A stretch of DNA of 64,000 nt from sequence record KR014248; one strand, given 5' to 3'. Every line of letters begins with the position of its first letter. Position 1 is the stretch's first letter. Source of the DNA: Escherichia phage vB_EcoM_AYO145A. Below are positions 1,360-5,687 of this stretch, piece by piece. The notes beneath the pieces were generated by a model that ran no database searches, was not told the origin of the DNA, and saw only the letters and a list, made by a program, of their open reading frames with translations. A program made the translations under genes and the position numbers.

Positions 1360-1389
1360 TTGACAGACTCTACAAAGTTGCTCTAAAGT
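1360..1389 (+). promoter_or_regulatory. sigma70-like promoter (TTGACA 1360-1365, TAAAGT about 1384-1389)
   Basis: -35/-10 hexamers with 17-18 nt spacing upstream of CDS 1429. Confidence 0.4.
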
Positions 1390-1428: not shown

Positions 1429-2844
1429 ATGAGCGAATTATTTAAACATGCGCACCTTCATGCAGGTCGAACTGAAAATGGTGCTGTAAACCATACTTCA
1501 TCAATGTCTGCTCTTGTAGACTTTTACAAAGCTGCTGGTTCTAGCCGTAGCAATGTAGGAATCTTACCAGACCTGTTCTACAAAGCTTTGCGTGAGGATG
1601 TTGATGTTGCAGTTCGTATTTTGCTTCATATGCGAGATGTACGAGAAGGTATGGGTGAGCGTAAAGCTTTCCGAACTGTTTTACTTCAAGCGATTGAAGA
1701 TAAAGTTTTAGAGCCTACGCAGGTTCTTCGCATTATGGATAAGATTGCAGAGCTTGGTCGTTTTGATGACTTCAAAATCTTCGTGGGTACTCGTTTCGAG
1801 ACAGATGCCTTCAAACATTTAGAAGCAGCATTACTAGACCCTGCAACAGCAGGTTTGGCAGCTAAGTGGTTACCACGAGTCAAACCACGTCATAAGCAGT
1901 TTGTAAAACGTTTCTGCAAGTTTGCAAACTTGAGTGAGAAAGAGTACCGCACACTGTTGTCTGCACTATCTGATACAGTTGAACAAAAAATCTCTGCTAA
2001 TGAGTTTGGTAAGATTGACTACAGTAAGATTCCTTCACTTGCTGCTGCACGTTACCAAAAACTCTTTAACCGTAAAGATGGAGAACGCTACAAAGCTTAC
2101 ATCGAGTCACTCTCAAAAGGTGAGGCCAAGATTAACGCTGGTGCTGTTTACCCATACGATGTGATTAAATCTATCAAGTATGGTAATGCAGATGTTGCTA
2201 ATGAGCAGTGGAAAGCACTACCAAACTGGATGGTAGAAGGTGAAAACATCCTGTGTATGACTGATGTTTCAAGCTCAATGTCTTGGGTGAATCTTGGTTC
2301 AATCACTGCCCTTGATATTGGTGTATCCCTTGCCTTGTATGTAGCAGAACGCAATACAGGTTGTTTTAAGAATGAGTTAATGGTTTATTCAACAAACCCT
2401 CATTTCATCGAATTGAGTGGTGATTTACGAAACCGTCATCGTCAGATAATGCGTCATGTTGAATATGGCTCAACTAACTTACAAGCAGCTTTTGACCGTA
2501 TTCTTGAAATAGGCAAGAGAAACAACTTGACTCAGAAAGATATGCCAAGTAAGCTTATTATCTTCTCTGATATGGAGTTCAATCAGGTTGATGGAGCTAA
2601 CGGTCGTACAAACTTTGAAGCAATTCAGAGTAAGTACAAAAAAGCTGGATATGAGATGCCACAACTGGTATTCTGGTACTTAGCAAACCGTAATGGTACT
2701 TGCGAAGTATCTGTTAAGGATAATGGTGTAGCAATGGTATCAGGGTTCTCTCCAGCCACTTTAAAAGCTCTGCTTGGTGGTGAGAAGTTTGACCCAATCA
2801 GCGTAATGCTCAAAGCAGTAATGATTGACCGTTATATCTGGTAA
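1429..2844 (+). CDS. Ro60/Rsr-like protein (TROVE-like N-terminal region plus C-terminal von Willebrand A domain with MIDAS motif DVSSSMS)
   Basis: vWA MIDAS D-x-S-x-S at CMTDVSSSMS; C-terminal 200 aa align by eye to recalled human Ro60 C-terminus (LAVDVSASM / LIVCGMTSNGF...MCGFDTGALDVIRNF vs LCMTDVSSSM / LVFWYLANRNG...VSGFSPATLKALLGG); alternative is a related DUF2828-type vWA protein. Confidence 0.6.
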   Translation: MSELFKHAHLHAGRTENGAVNHTSSMSALVDFYKAAGSSRSNVGILPDLFYKALREDVDVAVRILLHMRDVREGMGERKAFRTVLLQAIEDKVLEPTQVLRIMDKIAELGRFDDFKIFVGTRFETDAFKHLEAALLDPATAGLAAKWLPRVKPRHKQFVKRFCKFANLSEKEYRTLLSALSDTVEQKISANEFGKIDYSKIPSLAAARYQKLFNRKDGERYKAYIESLSKGEAKINAGAVYPYDVIKSIKYGNADVANEQWKALPNWMVEGENILCMTDVSSSMSWVNLGSITALDIGVSLALYVAERNTGCFKNELMVYSTNPHFIELSGDLRNRHRQIMRHVEYGSTNLQAAFDRILEIGKRNNLTQKDMPSKLIIFSDMEFNQVDGANGRTNFEAIQSKYKKAGYEMPQLVFWYLANRNGTCEVSVKDNGVAMVSGFSPATLKALLGGEKFDPISVMLKAVMIDRYIW

Positions 2845-2862
2845 AAAGTTTTAAAAAGGGTA

Positions 2863-2891
2863 TTGACAATGTGTTTGATACCCTTTAATAT
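2863..2891 (+). promoter_or_regulatory. sigma70-like promoter (TTGACA 2863-2868, 17-nt spacer, TAATAT 2886-2891)
   Basis: Near-consensus hexamers preceded by A/T-rich UP-like tract. Confidence 0.55.
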
Positions 2892-2953
2892 GTTCTACAT
2901 AGAAACAAAATGAGAGCTTTTCTAAGATACTGAAAAATATTTTAAAAAAGTTC

Positions 2954-2982
2954 TTGACAACCACTAAAAAATAATGTTAAAG
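2954..2982 (+). promoter_or_regulatory. sigma70-like promoter candidate for tRNA array (TTGACA 2954-2959)
   Basis: Consensus -35; -10 is weak (TTAAAG at 17 nt). Confidence 0.35.
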
Positions 2983-3009
2983 TGGTTACATAGAGTTTGA
3001 AAAGTTTAT

Positions 3010-3086
3010 CTCTGTTTAGCTCAGCTTGGTAGAGCGTTCCGTTTGGGGCGGTAAGGCCGGAGGTTCAAGTCCTCCAACAGAGACCA
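3010..3086 (+). tRNA. tRNA-Pro (anticodon TGG), CCA encoded
   Basis: Acceptor CTCTGTT/AACAGAG, D-arm GCTCAGCTTGGTAGAGC, anticodon loop TTTGGGG, T-arm GGAGGTTCAAGTCCTCC. Confidence 0.8.
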
Positions 3087-3093
3087 AATTAAT

Positions 3094-3171
3094 GTTCCAG
3101 TAGACAAAATGGTAAAGTCACCACTCTTTCAAAGTGGATATTTGAGGGTTCAAATCCCTTCTGGAACGCCA
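3094..3171 (+). tRNA. tRNA-Glu (anticodon TTC), CCA encoded
   Basis: Acceptor GTTCCAG/CTGGAAC, anticodon stem CCACT/AGTGG loop CTTTCAA, T-arm GAGGGTTCAAATCCCTT. Confidence 0.75.
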
Positions 3172-3178
3172 GTTTTGA

Positions 3179-3251
3179 CAGAAGACCAATTACAGCAAAC
3201 TTAATCTTATTCATCTGACACGAAATCGGACAAAGAAGAGATTTGGTCTGG
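3179..3251 (+). ncRNA. stem-closed element U1 (5' CAGAAGACC ... GGTCTGG 3' closing helix with covarying extension; short Y RNA-like candidate)
   Basis: Conserved termini and internal TTACAGCAA box shared with elements at 3346, 3762, 3852; helix extension AGACCAA/TTGGTCT covaries between copies. Confidence 0.4.
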
Positions 3252-3262
3252 TCATTAAGAAT

Positions 3263-3339
3263 TGCGGGTATAGAGAAAGGGCGTCTCACATGTCTCATTA
3301 GCATGGTATCGGCAGGTTCGACTCCTGCACCCGCCTCCA
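3263..3339 (+). tRNA. tRNA with anticodon CAT (Met-type; possible initiator, position 1-72 mismatched, T at position 37)
   Basis: T-arm GCAGGTTCGACTCCTGC, acceptor 3' ACCCGCC plus CCA, anticodon stem CATGT/GCATG loop CTCATTA. Confidence 0.6.
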
Positions 3340-3345
3340 ATTTTG

Positions 3346-3405
3346 CAGAAGACCGTATGCAGCAATAAACTACTTTTTGCGGATAAAAGAAAAAACACGG
3401 TCTGG
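3346..3405 (+). ncRNA. stem-closed element U2 (CAGAAGACC ... GGTCTGG)
   Basis: Same conserved termini; extension AGACCG/CGGTCT. Confidence 0.4.
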
Positions 3406-3416
3406 CAATGTATTAA

Positions 3417-3493
3417 GGTTAGGAAGCACATAAGGTATGTGCGGTCGCCTGTTAAGCGAATGGCACAGGGTTCGAATCCCTGACTAACCGCCA
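3417..3493 (+). tRNA. tRNA-Asn (anticodon GTT), CCA encoded
   Basis: Acceptor GGTTAGG/ACTAACC, anticodon loop CTGTTAA, T-arm CAGGGTTCGAATCCCTG. Confidence 0.75.
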
Positions 3494-3502
3494 AATTTAA
3501 AT

Positions 3503-3590
3503 GTGTCGTTATCCCGTAGATGGTAGCGGTGGGGACTGTAAATCCCTTGTCATTGAGACTCGGTAGGTTCGACTCCTACACGGCACACCA
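3503..3590 (+). tRNA. tRNA-Tyr (anticodon GTA), long variable arm, CCA encoded
   Basis: Acceptor GTGTCGT/ACGGCAC, anticodon stem GGGGA/TCCCT loop CTGTAAA, T-arm GTAGGTTCGACTCCTAC. Confidence 0.75.
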
Positions 3591-3596
3591 AATAAA

Positions 3597-3674
3597 GGTT
3601 ATGTAGTTTAATCTGGTTAAAATACTCCCCTGTCACGGGAGATGATGAGGGTTCAAATCCCTTCGTAACCGCCA
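3597..3674 (+). tRNA. tRNA-Asp (anticodon GTC), CCA encoded
   Basis: Acceptor GGTTATG/CGTAACC, anticodon stem CTCCC/GGGAG loop CTGTCAC, T-arm GAGGGTTCAAATCCCTT. Confidence 0.8.
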
Positions 3675-3761
3675 AATTATAATAAGTATTCCAAGATGAT
3701 GTTTTGAGAGGGCTATTTAGCCCCTCCCTTAAAGAGTTCTTACGAGTATTCTTTAAAGGAG

Positions 3762-3838
3762 CAGAAGACCAAATTCAGCAAGTACGTATGATATTTTCAA
3801 GCCAATTTAATTTTGAAAAAATTTAAAACTTGGTCTGG
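3762..3838 (+). ncRNA. stem-closed element U3 (CAGAAGACC ... GGTCTGG)
   Basis: Same conserved termini; extension AGACCAA/TTGGTCT. Confidence 0.4.
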
Positions 3839-3851
3839 CTCAACAAATTTA

Positions 3852-3983
3852 CAGAAGACCGTTTACAGCAAAACTTAAACAATCTATTTCTCCGGTAAAG
3901 AAAAGGCGAAGGTTCGATTCCTTCACTCGGCAGATGTCGAGTTGGTGTAATGGTAGCACTTAAGATGATAAACAACGGTCTGG
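3852..3983 (+). ncRNA. tRNA-mimic ncRNA (YrlA/Y RNA-like): closing helix CAGAAGACCGTT/AACGGTCTGG enclosing T-arm, hairpin-closed acceptor stem and D-arm
   Basis: Order 5'->3': T-arm GAAGGTTCGATTCCTTC (3908-3924), ACTCGGC-AGAT-GTCGAGT hairpin (3925-3942), D-arm GTGTAATGGTAGCAC (3945-3959); no anticodon arm; ends pair. Confidence 0.5.
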
Positions 3984-3985
3984 TA

Positions 3986-4126
3986 ATTATCTTTGTAGAT
4001 AAGTTATTAAGCTTACCTGTGAGTATGCGACCACAAAGGGTGAAAGGGTAAATTCTAGATTTAAACCCAACAAGGCACATCGCTACAGACCTTAAGCAAG
4101 TCTGGGTAGCTTATCTACAAAGATAA
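3986..4126. repeat. two inverted copies of 16-bp palindrome TTATCTTTGTAGATAA (3986-4001 and 4111-4126) flanking a mini CAGACC..GTCTGG hairpin (4082-4110)
   Basis: Exact reverse-complement copies read from sequence; half-site TTATCTACA resembles a DnaA-box-like 9-mer. Confidence 0.4.
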
Positions 4127-4133
4127 TTTTAAT

Positions 4134-4209
4134 GGAAGTGTAGCAGAATGGTGATGCGGCAGACTTTTAATCTGACAGGCGATGGGTTCGAATCCCTCCA
4201 CTTCTACCA
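4134..4209 (+). tRNA. tRNA-Lys (anticodon TTT), CCA encoded
   Basis: Acceptor GGAAGTG/CACTTCT, anticodon loop CTTTTAA, T-arm GGGTTCGAATCCC; paralogue of tRNA at 5366. Confidence 0.65.
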
Positions 4210-4213
4210 ATAT

Positions 4214-4290
4214 GGTTCAGTCGCAGATAAGGTAATGCAGGGGTCTCATAAGCCCTATGAATGTGGGTTCGATTCCCATCTGAACCTCCA
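4214..4290 (+). tRNA. tRNA-Met or Ile2 (anticodon CAT), CCA encoded
   Basis: Acceptor GGTTCAG/CTGAACC, anticodon stem GGGGT/GCCCT loop CTCATAA, T-arm GTGGGTTCGATTCCCAT. Confidence 0.75.
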
Positions 4291-4291
4291 A

Positions 4292-4367
4292 GCTGGTATA
4301 GTTAAGAAGGTTATAACACTCCCCTGATAAGGGAACATCGGTGGTTCGATTCCACCTACCAGTACCA
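4292..4367 (+). tRNA. tRNA-Ile (anticodon GAT), CCA encoded
   Basis: Acceptor GCTGGTA/TACCAGT, anticodon stem CTCCC/GGGAA loop CTGATAA, T-arm GGTGGTTCGATTCCACC. Confidence 0.75.
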
Positions 4368-4382
4368 ATTTCAATAAAGTTG

Positions 4383-4411
4383 TTGACATTGAGATGTGAC
4401 TACTTTATAGT
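4383..4411 (+). promoter_or_regulatory. sigma70-like promoter internal to tRNA array (TTGACA 4383-4388, 17-nt spacer, TATAGT 4406-4411)
   Basis: Near-consensus hexamers and spacing. Confidence 0.55.
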
Positions 4412-4615
4412 AACCTTAGTTTTCGTTGCGTAGCGTCTATTTTGCAAATTTAAAATAAATGCAAACGACAATGTTTTTCTGGCAGTAGCTTGATAGGCTA
4501 AACACCAGTGAGGTCTTCCAATCCCTCATCAAAGAATTTGGCGTACTCGCCCACGGTATGATTAATAAGGTGGGCATCTTTAAGGGCTTTCTAAGAGAGT
4601 CTTTAAAGATAATTA

Positions 4616-4697
4616 CGGGGCGTATCTCAGCGGTCTTCTAAACCGCCGTTAACCGAGTAAGTGGAGTATGCGGGTTCGAGTCCTGCCGCCTCGACCA
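4616..4697 (+). tRNA. atypical tRNA-like gene (anticodon-like hairpin GCGGT-CTTCTAA-ACCGC, TCT = Arg; no clear D-arm, 23-nt extra region), CCA encoded
   Basis: Clear T-arm GCGGGTTCGAGTCCTGC, acceptor CGGGGCG/CGCCTCG; internal architecture non-canonical. Confidence 0.4.
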
Positions 4698-4839: not shown

Positions 4840-4922
4840 GTGGGACGATGTTAAGACTCTAAGGCATGAGCAACGGCTTCCAACACCGTTTCAAAGGGGT
4901 TCAACTCCTCCGTCCCATGCCA
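4840..4922 (+). tRNA. atypical tRNA-like gene (about 80 nt; hairpin AACGG-CTTCCAACA-CCGTT, anticodon uncertain, possibly TCC), CCA encoded
   Basis: T-arm AGGGGTTCAACTCCTCC, acceptor GTGGGAC/GTCCCAT; D region not resolvable by eye. Confidence 0.4.
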
Positions 4923-4935
4923 AAGTCTTATTAGG

Positions 4936-5023: not shown

Positions 5024-5280
5024 CCTAATAAGATTTAAAGCCAAGCTTCATTCGGATGTTGCTTTGGTATACCGCGTGTATTGTTGTACGCACTGATAAA
5101 GCACCTAGTAGGTGTCACGGAGAAGAGATAATATCAAGCTCTCCAAAGGTTCTAGTCACCGGATTAAACAAGACTATGCAAAGACCTTTTTAGGTCTTTT
5201 TAGAGGGCTTCTAAGGTTATTACAGCTTGTTGTGGAACCTTGTTGCTTAGGTTCTTAGAAGTTCTCTAAAAAGACTTAAT

Positions 5281-5358
5281 GGGAGATTGACGGTAATTGG
5301 TAAACCTATCTCGCTTAGAACGAGATGTTTGAGGGTTCGAATCCCTTGTCTCCTACCA
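5281..5358 (+). tRNA. tRNA with Leu anticodon TAG but class-I (short variable arm) architecture, CCA encoded
   Basis: Acceptor GGGAGAT/GTCTCCT, anticodon stem TCTCG/CGAGA loop CTTAGAA, T-arm GAGGGTTCGAATCCCTT, A73. Confidence 0.6.
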
Positions 5359-5447: not shown

Positions 5448-5523
5448 GGGGATGTAGTTTACATGGTTAAAACATAAGTTTTGCAAACTTAAGTACAGGG
5501 TTCAATTCCCTGCTTCTCCACCA
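5448..5523 (+). tRNA. tRNA-Ala (anticodon TGC), CCA encoded
   Basis: Acceptor GGGGATG/CTTCTCC (one mismatch), anticodon stem TAAGT/ACTTA loop TTTGCAA, T-arm CAGGGTTCAATTCCCTG. Confidence 0.65.
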
Positions 5524-5529
5524 ATTAGT

Positions 5530-5604
5530 GCATCCATAGTTTAAACGGGAAAATTACAGTCTTCCAAACTGAGGTTGAGGGTTCGATTCCCTCTGGATGC
5601 TCCA
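5530..5604 (+). tRNA. tRNA-Gly (anticodon TCC), CCA encoded
   Basis: Acceptor GCATCCA/TGGATGC, anticodon loop CTTCCAA, T-arm GAGGGTTCGATTCCCTC. Confidence 0.7.
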
Positions 5605-5610
5605 AACAAT

Positions 5611-5687
5611 GCTGCTTTCGTATAATTGGCTATTACACATCCCTTGTAAGGATGGAAATGCAGGTTCGAGTCCTGTGAGCAGCACCA
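5611..5687 (+). tRNA. tRNA-Thr (anticodon TGT), CCA encoded
   Basis: Acceptor GCTGCTT/GAGCAGC, anticodon stem CATCC/GGATG loop CTTGTAA, T-arm GCAGGTTCGAGTCCTGT. Confidence 0.75.

Follow-up and report, generated by a model that had tools for sequence, protein, structure and literature searches.

A predicted Ro60-like protein and candidate Y-RNA-like partner RNAs in the tRNA operon of a Felix O1-like phage

The stretch of DNA analyzed here (the window; 64,000 nucleotides of Escherichia phage vB_EcoM_AYO145A, record KR014248) carries a gene for a 471-residue protein and, downstream of it on the same strand, a tRNA array in which four small structured RNA elements, E1-E4, are embedded. The window is 97-98% identical to Felixounavirus genomes, among them those of Escherichia phages EcoM2 and JH2 and of Salmonella phage BPS17L1, and is on this sequence identity assigned to Felixounavirus, the Felix O1-like myoviruses of E. 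coli and Salmonella. All 25 tRNA genes of the window are encoded on the plus strand between positions 3010 and 7955. The original prediction for this locus had proposed a phage-encoded Ro60-Y RNA module, made up of the product of gene 1429-2844 and of one tRNA-mimicking element at 3852-3983. Analyzing protein, RNAs and their counterparts in other phages, we consider it probable that the locus encodes a Ro60-like ribonucleoprotein (RNP) of a DUF2828 type, with Y-RNA-like partner RNAs released from the tRNA operon.

The protein matches the Pfam families DUF7788 (E-value 2e-43, residues 275-455), DUF2828 (1e-28) and, weakly, VWA_2 (6e-5). A vWA domain with a metal-ion-dependent adhesion site (MIDAS), as originally noted, is confirmed by these profiles and by the residues D279-x-S281-x-S283 (nt 2263-2277), T349 and D381, all five of which are invariant in 35 homologues. 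In the same set, basic residues of the helical part (R40, R72, R78, R111 and K146) are likewise invariant. An AlphaFold2 model built with the 35 homologues (predicted local distance difference test score, pLDDT, 88.5; predicted template modelling score, pTM, 0.88) displays an all-helical N-terminal part and a C-terminal alpha/beta domain. Foldseek comparison with the PDB returned full-length Ro60 structures as all of the 12 best matches (Xenopus, human, Deinococcus Rsr and Thermus phage phiLo, E 1e-8 to 2e-6), with vWA-only proteins following behind them. The predicted model therefore combines a helical, HEAT-like ring with a subsequent vWA domain containing a MIDAS, which is the Ro60 fold; likeness to Ro60, initially noticed for the C-terminal 200 residues, is present there and extends over the whole protein in structural alignments. 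At the sequence level, a phmmer search of PDB sequences with the window protein and a family profile search find no Ro60, and the Pfam profile vWA_Ro60 is faintly matched by 6 of the 35 relatives (best E 0.0012). As judged from the model, the gene product is a Ro60-fold protein of DUF2828/DUF7788, a sequence family apart from TROVE.

This protein family was found in 708 out of 50,697 deposited phage genomes and in hundreds of metagenomic viral contigs, comprising Felix-like, Vibrio, Campylobacter, Listeria, Staphylococcus, Enterococcus and Bacillus phages as well as mycobacteriophages. Felixounavirus records name the coding sequence 'hypothetical', 'vWFA', 'DUF2828 family' or 'RNA-binding' protein, and some mycobacteriophage entries already carry the label 'Ro-like RNA binding protein'. 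The latter proteins of cluster L mycobacteriophages (LeBron gp53 and Finnry gp54) belong to the same family, with 31-34% identity over the full length; these labels and that of PHROG 850 are database annotations only, and handle RNAs of the kind described below are unannotated in the records inspected. For Listeria phage CKA15, the homologue CKA15_055 was matched to Rsr by HHpred, with its authors speculating on Y RNAs, and was identified in purified virions with 57% of its sequence covered (2025, PMC12282133). This finding hints at possible packaging of the protein and at a role as soon as infection begins. DUF2828 genes have further been mentioned for plants and mimivirus-like sequences.

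Inspection of the tRNA array revealed four paralogous elements on the plus strand instead of the single one proposed before, located 0.33-1.0 kb 3' of the Ro60-fold gene, starting 330 nt past its stop codon (Table 1). E1 and E2 are separated from flanking tRNA genes by spacers of 4-9 nt. All four share a common handle, (A)AG-helix-UUACAGCAA...helix-CUG, in which a terminal helix of 7-8 bp begins with (A)AG and ends with CUG followed by an invariant G, with a single-stranded (U)UACAGCAA immediately 3' of its 5' strand. The string CAGAAGACC-N5-CAGCAA occurs in four copies in the window, where 0.00 are expected, and a matching NNGGUCUGG is located downstream of each. In the Felix O1-type lineage the terminal helix is lengthened by an outer 4-bp stem, and these stems differ in sequence yet pair in every element (UGAC/GUCA in E1, UUGC/GCAA in E2, GAGC/GCUC in E3 and UUAC/GUAA in E4). 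Interiors vary: those of E1-E3 are short, E4 encloses a circularly permuted tRNA cloverleaf, and the helix-to-helix lengths are 52-69 nt and 124 nt, respectively. Synteny of E1-E4 extends to 13 further Ounavirinae loci with Ro60-like proteins 79-99% identical to that of the window. The element ends are conserved among these orthologues and the loops vary in length; in E2, the outer stem UUGC/GCAA is exchanged for UUAC/GUAA, a compensatory change. The handle RNAs are unannotated in all GenBank records inspected, and neither a description in the literature nor an Rfam family was found for them.

E4 differs from its three paralogues by its tRNA-like interior. The T arm, the closed acceptor-like hairpin and the D arm recognized in the original prediction are reproduced by the minimum free energy (MFE) fold, the ends of the element do pair (3856-3863 with 3974-3981), and its position on the gene strand, about 1 kb 3' of the gene and inside the tRNA operon, is as described. 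Two points require revision: the outer 4-bp stem extends the helix, so that the element spans 3849-3986 and not 3852-3983, and an anticodon-like arm, which had been thought absent, is present at 3887-3903. The Rfam tRNA model aligns with its positions 7-64 over 3875-3925 (22 bits), covering the anticodon-like and T arms, and ARAGORN calls no tRNA at 3849-3986. Consensus folding of 16 long forms, taken from distant phages of five host groups, recovers T arm, 7-bp acceptor-like hairpin and D arm, and compensatory changes are found in 13 of the 16 pairs of the tRNA-like arms across these homologues. As the junction lengths in E4 are those of tRNA, the cloverleaf is complete. E4 is thus a complete cloverleaf, circularly permuted at the junction between D arm and anticodon arm and inserted into the closing helix, without the open acceptor stem and CCA-ready 3' end of a tRNA, its acceptor-like stem being closed by AGAU. 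An 85-aa open reading frame (ORF) on the minus strand across E4 (3823-4080) was rejected as a gene, because orthologues of E4 measure 115, 116, 119, 120, 123 and 124 nt, length differences that are not multiples of three.

Table 1 Features of the Ro60-like gene, the first tRNA block and the handle RNAs in window coordinates
Feature	Position	Strand	Basis or context
Promoter-like TTGACA-18-TAAAGT, 5' of the Ro60-like gene	1360-1389	+	Consensus scan
Gene for 471-aa protein with predicted Ro60 fold	1429-2844	+	Pfam DUF2828 and DUF7788; PHROG 850 'RNA-binding protein'
All-helical N-terminal part (~aa 1-265), aligning with the Ro60 HEAT-repeat ring	1429-2223	+	Secondary structure; full-length structural alignments
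C-terminal vWA domain with MIDAS	2236-2841	+	Pfam DUF7788/VWA_2; invariant residues
Promoter-like TTGACA-17-TAATAT, just 3' of the gene, overlapping hairpin 2855-2886	2863-2891	+	Consensus scan
Promoter-like TTGACA-18-TAAAGT with preceding TG, before tRNA-Pro	2954-2983	+	Consensus scan; tRNA calls
First tRNA-array block: Pro, Glu, Met, Asn, Tyr, Asp, Lys, Met, Ile	3010-4367	+	E1-E4 embedded within
E1, between tRNA-Glu and tRNA-Met	3176-3254	+	Motif, fold, descriptor, orthologues; amoeba-only covariance model 16.3 bits
E1 inner helix, AGACCAA with UUGGUCU; internal loop AGA/G	3183-3189 with 3243-3249	+	Fold
E1 UUA-CAGCAA	3190-3198	+	Fold
E2, between tRNA-Met and tRNA-Asn	3343-3408	+	Motif, fold, descriptor; Rfam Dicty_Class_I_RNA 18.0 bits
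E2 inner helix	3350-3356 with 3397-3403	+	Fold
E2 CAGCAA	3360-3365	+	Fold
E3	3759-3841	+	Motif, fold, descriptor, orthologues
E3 inner helix	3766-3772 with 3830-3836	+	
E3 CAGCAA	3776-3781	+	
E4, carrying the permuted tRNA	3849-3986	+	Motif, fold, descriptor, orthologues, covariation
E4 outer 4-bp stem	3849-3852 with 3983-3986	+	Followed by AGA/G internal loop
E4 inner 8-bp helix, AGACCGUU with AACGGUCU	3856-3863 with 3974-3981	+	MFE fold
E4 UA-CAGCAA	3864-3871 (CAGCAA 3866-3871)	+	Sequence
E4 anticodon-arm-like UUUCU-CCGGUAA-AGAAA, then 4-nt variable-loop-like AGGC	3887-3903	+	MFE fold; Rfam tRNA model
E4 T arm GAAGG-UUCGAUU-CCUUC	3908-3924	+	Fold; covariation in 16 homologues
E4 acceptor-stem-like 7-bp hairpin ACUCGGC-AGAU-GUCGAGU, loop AGAU	3925-3942	+	Fold; 7/7 pairs compensatory
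E4 D arm GUGU-AAUGGUA-GCAC, 5' linker UG as at tRNA positions 8-9	3945-3959	+	Fold; covariation
Best promoter-like site of the region, TTGACA-17-TATAGT, 11/12 matches	4383-4411	+	Next strong site past the first tRNA block

Linkage of the handle RNAs to the protein gene was analyzed in 93 phage loci encoding the protein (1.02 Mb from phages of Proteobacteria, Firmicutes and Actinobacteria and from metagenomic contigs) with a strict descriptor, in which G-N5-N3-CAGCAA is followed by a 12-175 nt loop, N5'-C and (U/A)G, and the helix comprises six pairs of which no more than one may be G-U. It yields 144 matches on the gene strand versus one on the opposite strand and 1-2 in shuffled sequences, with at least one match in 69 loci; within the window, it identifies exactly E1-E4 and nothing else on both strands of the 64 kb. 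A non-circular test on 79 independent loci points in the same direction, since on the gene strand 211 out of 414 CAGCAA sites have a G at -9 and 93 of these 211 a closing helix, versus 37 out of 302 and 1 of 37 on the other strand. Two thirds of the matches in metagenomic loci (42/63) are located at most 500 nt from the gene ends, and the tRNA region of T5, a phage without a Ro60-like gene that served as negative control, contains no descriptor match. The family comprises 69 distinct handle helices with all Watson-Crick orientations at five positions, and pair -1/+7, which is not demanded by the descriptor, is AU in 60, UA in 12, GU in three and another combination in seven of 82 elements. A 5' flank AA precedes 90 of 148 matches across the family, and the tail reads UG(G/U/A). 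Element lengths are bimodal, 48-69 nt and ~105-133 nt, with a canonical T arm in none of the 85 short forms and in about half of the long ones. MAFFT alignment of whole elements misaligned the 3' ends; anchored pseudo-alignments and the descriptor were used instead.

Individual phages illustrate this coupling. Klebsiella phage KP13-16, with a protein 51% identical to that of the window, harbors five related elements directly 3' of the gene, three of them with tRNA-like modules, and the mycobacteriophages LeBron and Finnry each carry three handle RNAs immediately 3' of the gene, including one with a tRNA-like module. One to seven elements are present in Listeria, Staphylococcus, Bacillus, Enterococcus, Campylobacter, Aeromonas, Vibrio, Cronobacter and Sinorhizobium phages. 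Genes near that of the Ro60-like protein in relatives include tRNA arrays, RtcB, RNA ligases, a CCA-adding enzyme and phosphoesterases. This neighbourhood resembles the bacterial rsr-yrlA-rtcBA operon.

Further RNAs were observed in these and comparable phage loci. Two tRNA-shaped elements with open acceptor ends (one ending ...GACCA), at 10943-11060 of the KP13-16 locus (L002) and 5492-5613 of the locus of Aeromonas phage LAh_6 (L003), carry the handle in permuted form, 3' strand-CU-loop-AG-5' strand-UUACAGCA(A) with a short closing loop, placed between D arm and anticodon region or in place of the anticodon arm. Despite the large insert, they score 47.7 and 49.2 bits with the Rfam tRNA model, and a covariance model (CM) built from amoeba RNAs only (see below) matches LAh_6 at 5546-5601 with 22.9 bits. 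The five-armed structure hence exists in both circular permutations, with the handle open and the acceptor stem closed in E4 and the mirror image in KP13-16 and LAh_6. A 76-nt stretch of KP13-16 (10390-10465), in the tRNA array 3' of the handle RNAs, is matched by the Rfam tmRNA model at 31.6 bits (threshold 47). In Listeria phage List-36 (L007), a ROOL match of 91.5 bits (threshold 99.1) at 3426-3977 is located ~1 kb 5' of the Ro60-like gene on the same strand and, judging from size and position, is probably the counterpart of the CKA15_059-061 region, from which up to 67% of the phage transcripts in the CKA15 transcriptome derive (PMC12282133). These abundant non-coding CKA15 transcripts were considered as handle RNAs and rejected; their ~490 nt size and position fit ROOL better, and they are therefore not counted as handle-RNA expression. 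The T5 region (L095, 12547-15346) contains the annotated stable small RNAs RNA I, III, IV, rna1, rna2 and RNA2H, none of which has the handle motif. Small RNAs of phage tRNA arrays are thus of more than one kind.

A comparison with characterized Ro60/Rsr-Y RNA particles reveals shared design. In Ro60 itself, Y RNAs attach to the outer face of the ring, and ends of misfolded RNAs are held in its central hole. The ring-plus-vWA protein fold, here in a predicted model, is that of Rsr-YrlA, of phiLo Ro60 with Yrl1/2 and of mycobacteriophage Ro with YrlA. As in these systems, small RNA genes are located beside the protein gene on the same strand (E1-E4 within the ~4 kb used as a criterion for YrlA), RNA-repair genes are close by in some relatives, and the RNAs combine, like Y RNAs, a terminal helix bearing a conserved motif with a variable effector module. 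The tRNA mimic, one RNA per genome, arranges its arms as YrlA does: the T arm first, then the closed acceptor stem, then the D arm. To this extent the YrlA architecture claimed originally holds; unlike YrlA, E4 retains an anticodon-like arm and has UUACAGCAA instead of the Ro-binding motif GNCGAAN0-1G. That motif, or CGAA, is positioned in a bulged helix in YrlA and phiLo Yrl RNAs (PMC4201824, PMC12135203), whereas the motif of E1-E4 is found beside a 7-bp helix. CGAA was rejected as the handle motif here, as its single copy in the loop of E1 is not common to E1-E4. Rfam at gathering thresholds detects only tRNAs in the whole window, and the YrlA model reaches 39.7 and 39.8 bits on the tRNA-like part of relatives in KP13-16 and LeBron, respectively, versus a threshold of 69. 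Chen et al. 2014 (PMC4201824) searched only genomes annotated with TROVE, and the DUF2828-type class therefore remained unseen there. The canonical phage Ro60 of Thermus phage phiLo binds neighbouring Y-like RNAs and PNPase, and dampens PNPase (PMC12135203).

A second likeness, missed by the original prediction along with the three shorter paralogues that have no tRNA module, connects the handle to the Class I RNAs of Dictyostelium (RF01414; Kjellin et al. 2021, PMC7919456). These RNAs are free, abundant and 42-65 nt long, and have been described as unique to Dictyostelia. Their terminal helix has 6 bp and varies in sequence, its 5' strand is followed by the motif CCUUACAGCAA, and the ends read AAG...CUGU (PMC7919456). 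Class I and phage RNAs share a short end-joining helix conserved in structure and not in sequence, (CC)UUACAGCAA directly 3' of the 5' strand and a variable interior, and the predicted phage RNAs would also be similar in their ends, AAG ... CUG(U), and in their typical size, ~50-65 nt. All five near-invariant positions of the 11-nt motif CCUUACAGCAA (U3, C6, C9, A10 and A11) are kept in E1 (AAUUACAGCAA) and E4 (GUUUACAGCAA); E2 (GUAUGCAGCAA) and E3 (AAAUUCAGCAA) keep C6, C9, A10 and A11 and have A at position 3. The ends in the window, as read from the genomic sequence, are AAG ... CUGG versus AAG ... CUGU in Class I. RF01414 is the sole non-tRNA-related Rfam family that matches several elements in register, namely E2 (18.0 bits), E4 (12.8 bits) and three KP13-16 elements, in a range of 12.8-24.4 bits; its gathering score of 41.5 bits is reached by none of E2, E4 and their relatives (best 24.4).

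For an independent comparison, a CM was built from 34 curated amoeba sequences only, with shortened calibration; its E-values are rough for that reason, and the biases in strand and position are independent of them. In 236 kb of phage loci this model yields 14 matches at E ≤ 0.17, each of them a handle element on the gene strand. Independent metagenomic loci (705 kb) contain 17 matches at E ≤ 0.14, of which 16 lie on the gene strand, almost all of these within ~500 nt of the gene ends. In the first 9 kb of the window the two best matches are E1 (16.3 bits, E 0.015) and E2 (13.9 bits), and relatives score up to 28.9 bits. Some phage copies, GGUUCC-UUACAGCAA...GGAACC-UG, are nearly indistinguishable from amoeba ones. 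Alignment of phage sequences to the amoeba CM shifts some helices by one position and was not used for pair counts. A weak match of the same model (UUCUC-UAUUG-CAGCAA...GAGAA-CUG, 11.4 bits, E 0.22) at 361-399 on the minus strand, opposite to the Ro60-like gene and within a small minus-strand ORF, is probably due to chance. Among curated amoeba RNAs, a hairpin resembling a T arm is present in Acytostelium asu_can_20 (CUAGG-UUCGAUC-CCUAG, ahead of a 9-bp hairpin) and in Polysphondylium ppa_can_99 (UUGG-UUCGAAU-CCGA; both from the supplement of PMC7919456), in parallel to the tRNA-like modules of the long phage forms.

Differences between both groups are evident as well. The first G precedes CAGCAA by 9 nt in phages; among the 26 amoeba sequences with an exact CAGCAA, 23 have a distance of 10 nt. 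The window copies have, unlike Class I, an extra outer stem and a CUGG end. Class I genes are RNA polymerase III genes with a Dictyostelium upstream sequence element (DUSE) ~60 nt upstream and Pol III-type termination, whereas the phage elements belong to a bacterial-type tRNA operon, and the only proven amoeba Class I partner is the RRM protein Rnp1A/CIBP. DDB_G0281243 and the family motifs were not found in the partial proteome files of the supplements, and this identifier appears only in the Kjellin preprint. By sequence, the phage handle closely resembles the Class I handle, which may reflect common descent or convergence. It is quite possible, if somewhat less likely than not, that DUF2828-type proteins and AAG-helix-UUACAGCAA...CUG RNAs constitute an old RNP family of viruses and eukaryotes, with Class I RNAs as its eukaryotic branch.

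How might such a particle form and act in the phage? E1-E4 would be transcribed together with the tRNAs from the promoter-like site around 2954-2983, which is likely the start of the operon holding them. Nucleases of tRNA processing would then free the elements, RNase P acting at the next tRNA and trimming proceeding past the preceding CCA, and leave stable, stem-closed RNAs. Helix and CAGCAA handle would provide the docking site for the Ro60-like protein, and the variable module would set the specificity of the particle, as Y RNAs do for Ro60, with E4 presenting a tRNA shape to tRNA-binding enzymes or nucleases. Its role would most likely be the handling of tRNA and structured RNA during infection, in surveillance, repair or control of host exoribonucleases. 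RtcB, RNA ligases, the CCA-adding enzyme and phosphoesterases near the genes of relatives point to tRNA/RNA repair or exonuclease control, a role comparable to those of Rsr-YrlA-RtcB and of phiLo Ro60-PNPase.

Several results weigh against a Ro60-like RNP with Y-RNA-like partners. Unlike Ro60/Rsr, the DUF2828/DUF7788 protein of the window has no match to TROVE (PF05731) at E ≤ 1, and none of its 35 relatives has one at E ≤ 10; the Rfam models Y_RNA and YrlA (RF02553) have no match in the window at E ≤ 10, in 2.5 kb or in 156 nt. The phage module originally envisaged is upheld insofar as E4 has the arm order of YrlA, lies in the tRNA operon and, with the other handle RNAs, tracks the gene across the 93 loci, and not as a TROVE protein with Rfam-type Y_RNA or YrlA. 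Twenty-four of the 93 loci lack a strict descriptor match and are, given the narrowness of the descriptor, missed variants or true absences. E1-E4 share the same fold, and each single fold beats shuffled sequences only modestly (z -1.3 to -1.9). The promoter-like sites are weak evidence, because shuffled sequences yield at least as many in total. Accumulation and ends of the RNAs, protein binding and function are computational inferences here. Finally, a single element abuts the gene in many metagenomic loci, directly at its start or stop, and in one of them (L034, 4951-5010) overlaps the start region, as would also be expected of cis-acting sites on the mRNA or precursor, through which the DUF2828 protein or another factor would regulate its own expression or the processing and stability of neighbouring transcripts. 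This cis-regulatory reading fits the single gene-abutting copies of some contigs; it fits the window poorly, where the elements begin 330 nt past the stop codon, behind two promoter-like sites and packed between tRNAs. Arrays of 3-7 elements, copies carrying a whole tRNA mimic and the closely similar Dictyostelium counterparts, which are abundant free RNAs of 42-65 nt (PMC7919456), likewise argue against it, and we regard it as unlikely.

The tRNA likeness of E4 allows for two further explanations. The RNAs could act alone, as tRNA-shaped decoys or sponges for host nucleases or defence proteins (anticodon nucleases, toxins, PNPase), with the protein stabilizing or chaperoning them or being unrelated. 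E4 and its relatives do mimic a complete tRNA, and phage tRNA arrays are considered a means to counter tRNA-targeting defences. PNPase is dampened by phiLo Ro60 together with the Yrl RNAs of that phage (PMC12135203). A tRNA module is missing, however, from E1-E3 and from most members of the family, and it is the handle that is conserved in all of them, in tight genomic coupling to the protein gene. Decoy function would leave this handle unexplained, and we consider it quite unlikely. Alternatively, E4 might be a decayed or rearranged tRNA pseudogene and E1-E3 functionless spacer hairpins of the tRNA operon, in keeping with the location of the elements within a tRNA array, the tRNA arms of E4 without an open acceptor end, the silence of ARAGORN and an Rfam tRNA score of only 22 bits. 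Decay is contradicted by the comparative data: E1-E4 are syntenic across Ounavirinae with ends kept while loop lengths drift, compensatory changes maintain every arm, the same architecture is found beside the gene in phages of Gram-positive bacteria and Actinobacteria where no tRNA array is nearby (LeBron, Finnry and a Staphylococcus phage), and the tRNA array of T5 is devoid of such elements. A pseudogene origin is therefore highly improbable.

Other structured stretches of the tRNA region were noted on the plus strand. Between E4 and tRNA-Lys, a ~145-nt element (3985-4128) has closing helix arms of 22 nt that are 95% complementary; this helix is kept in Mooglevirus-type relatives with a diverged interior, including two compensatory changes from C-G to U-A and one from C-G to G-C, and the element shows neither the handle motif nor an Rfam match. 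The unannotated 245-nt stretch 4370-4615, containing the promoter-like site 4383-4411, is weakly matched by tmRNA (29.2 bits) and permuted-tmRNA (16 bits) models. Adjacent to it, a tRNA-like gene at 4616-4694 (Rfam tRNA model 31.7 bits; tRNA-Arg in some records) has 4 nt only at the place of the D arm and a long insert in the variable region. Positions 4840-4924 combine tRNA-like ends, GUGGGAC ... GUCCCAU-GCCA, with a T-arm-like GGGGUUCAACUCCUCC and are called by neither ARAGORN nor Rfam; they may represent another tRNA-like RNA or a degenerate tRNA. Just 5' of tRNA-Leu, a long hairpin (5186-5285; 26-nt arms 88% complementary, 38-nt loop) gave a spurious match to a plant microRNA precursor (MIR473, 34.6 bits).

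Collectively, the predicted particle is Ro60-Y RNA-like in design and fails sequence-level membership of TROVE, YrlA and Class I. Although a textbook case of RNA surveillance, Ro60-Y RNA particles are still poorly understood. Known phage examples combine a TROVE-type Ro60 with CGAA-type Y RNAs; the system described here would be a second, much more widespread phage version. It comes with a simple sequence descriptor for the partner RNAs, covering plain 50-70 nt forms and permuted-tRNA forms, which should aid annotation of unexplained gaps in phage tRNA arrays. As the system is found in tractable phages (Felix O1 relatives, Listeria P100-like phages, Staphylococcus phages and mycobacteriophages), it is quickly testable. 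If the tentative link to the amoebae were true, Class I RNAs would be the amoeba's equivalents of Y RNAs, Dictyostelia would encode a DUF2828/DUF7788 protein that binds them, and plants and giant viruses with DUF2828 genes would carry cognate RNAs. For the Class I RNAs of Dictyostelium, whose mechanism has been obscure for 20 years, this would provide a first concrete hypothesis and a type of protein to seek.

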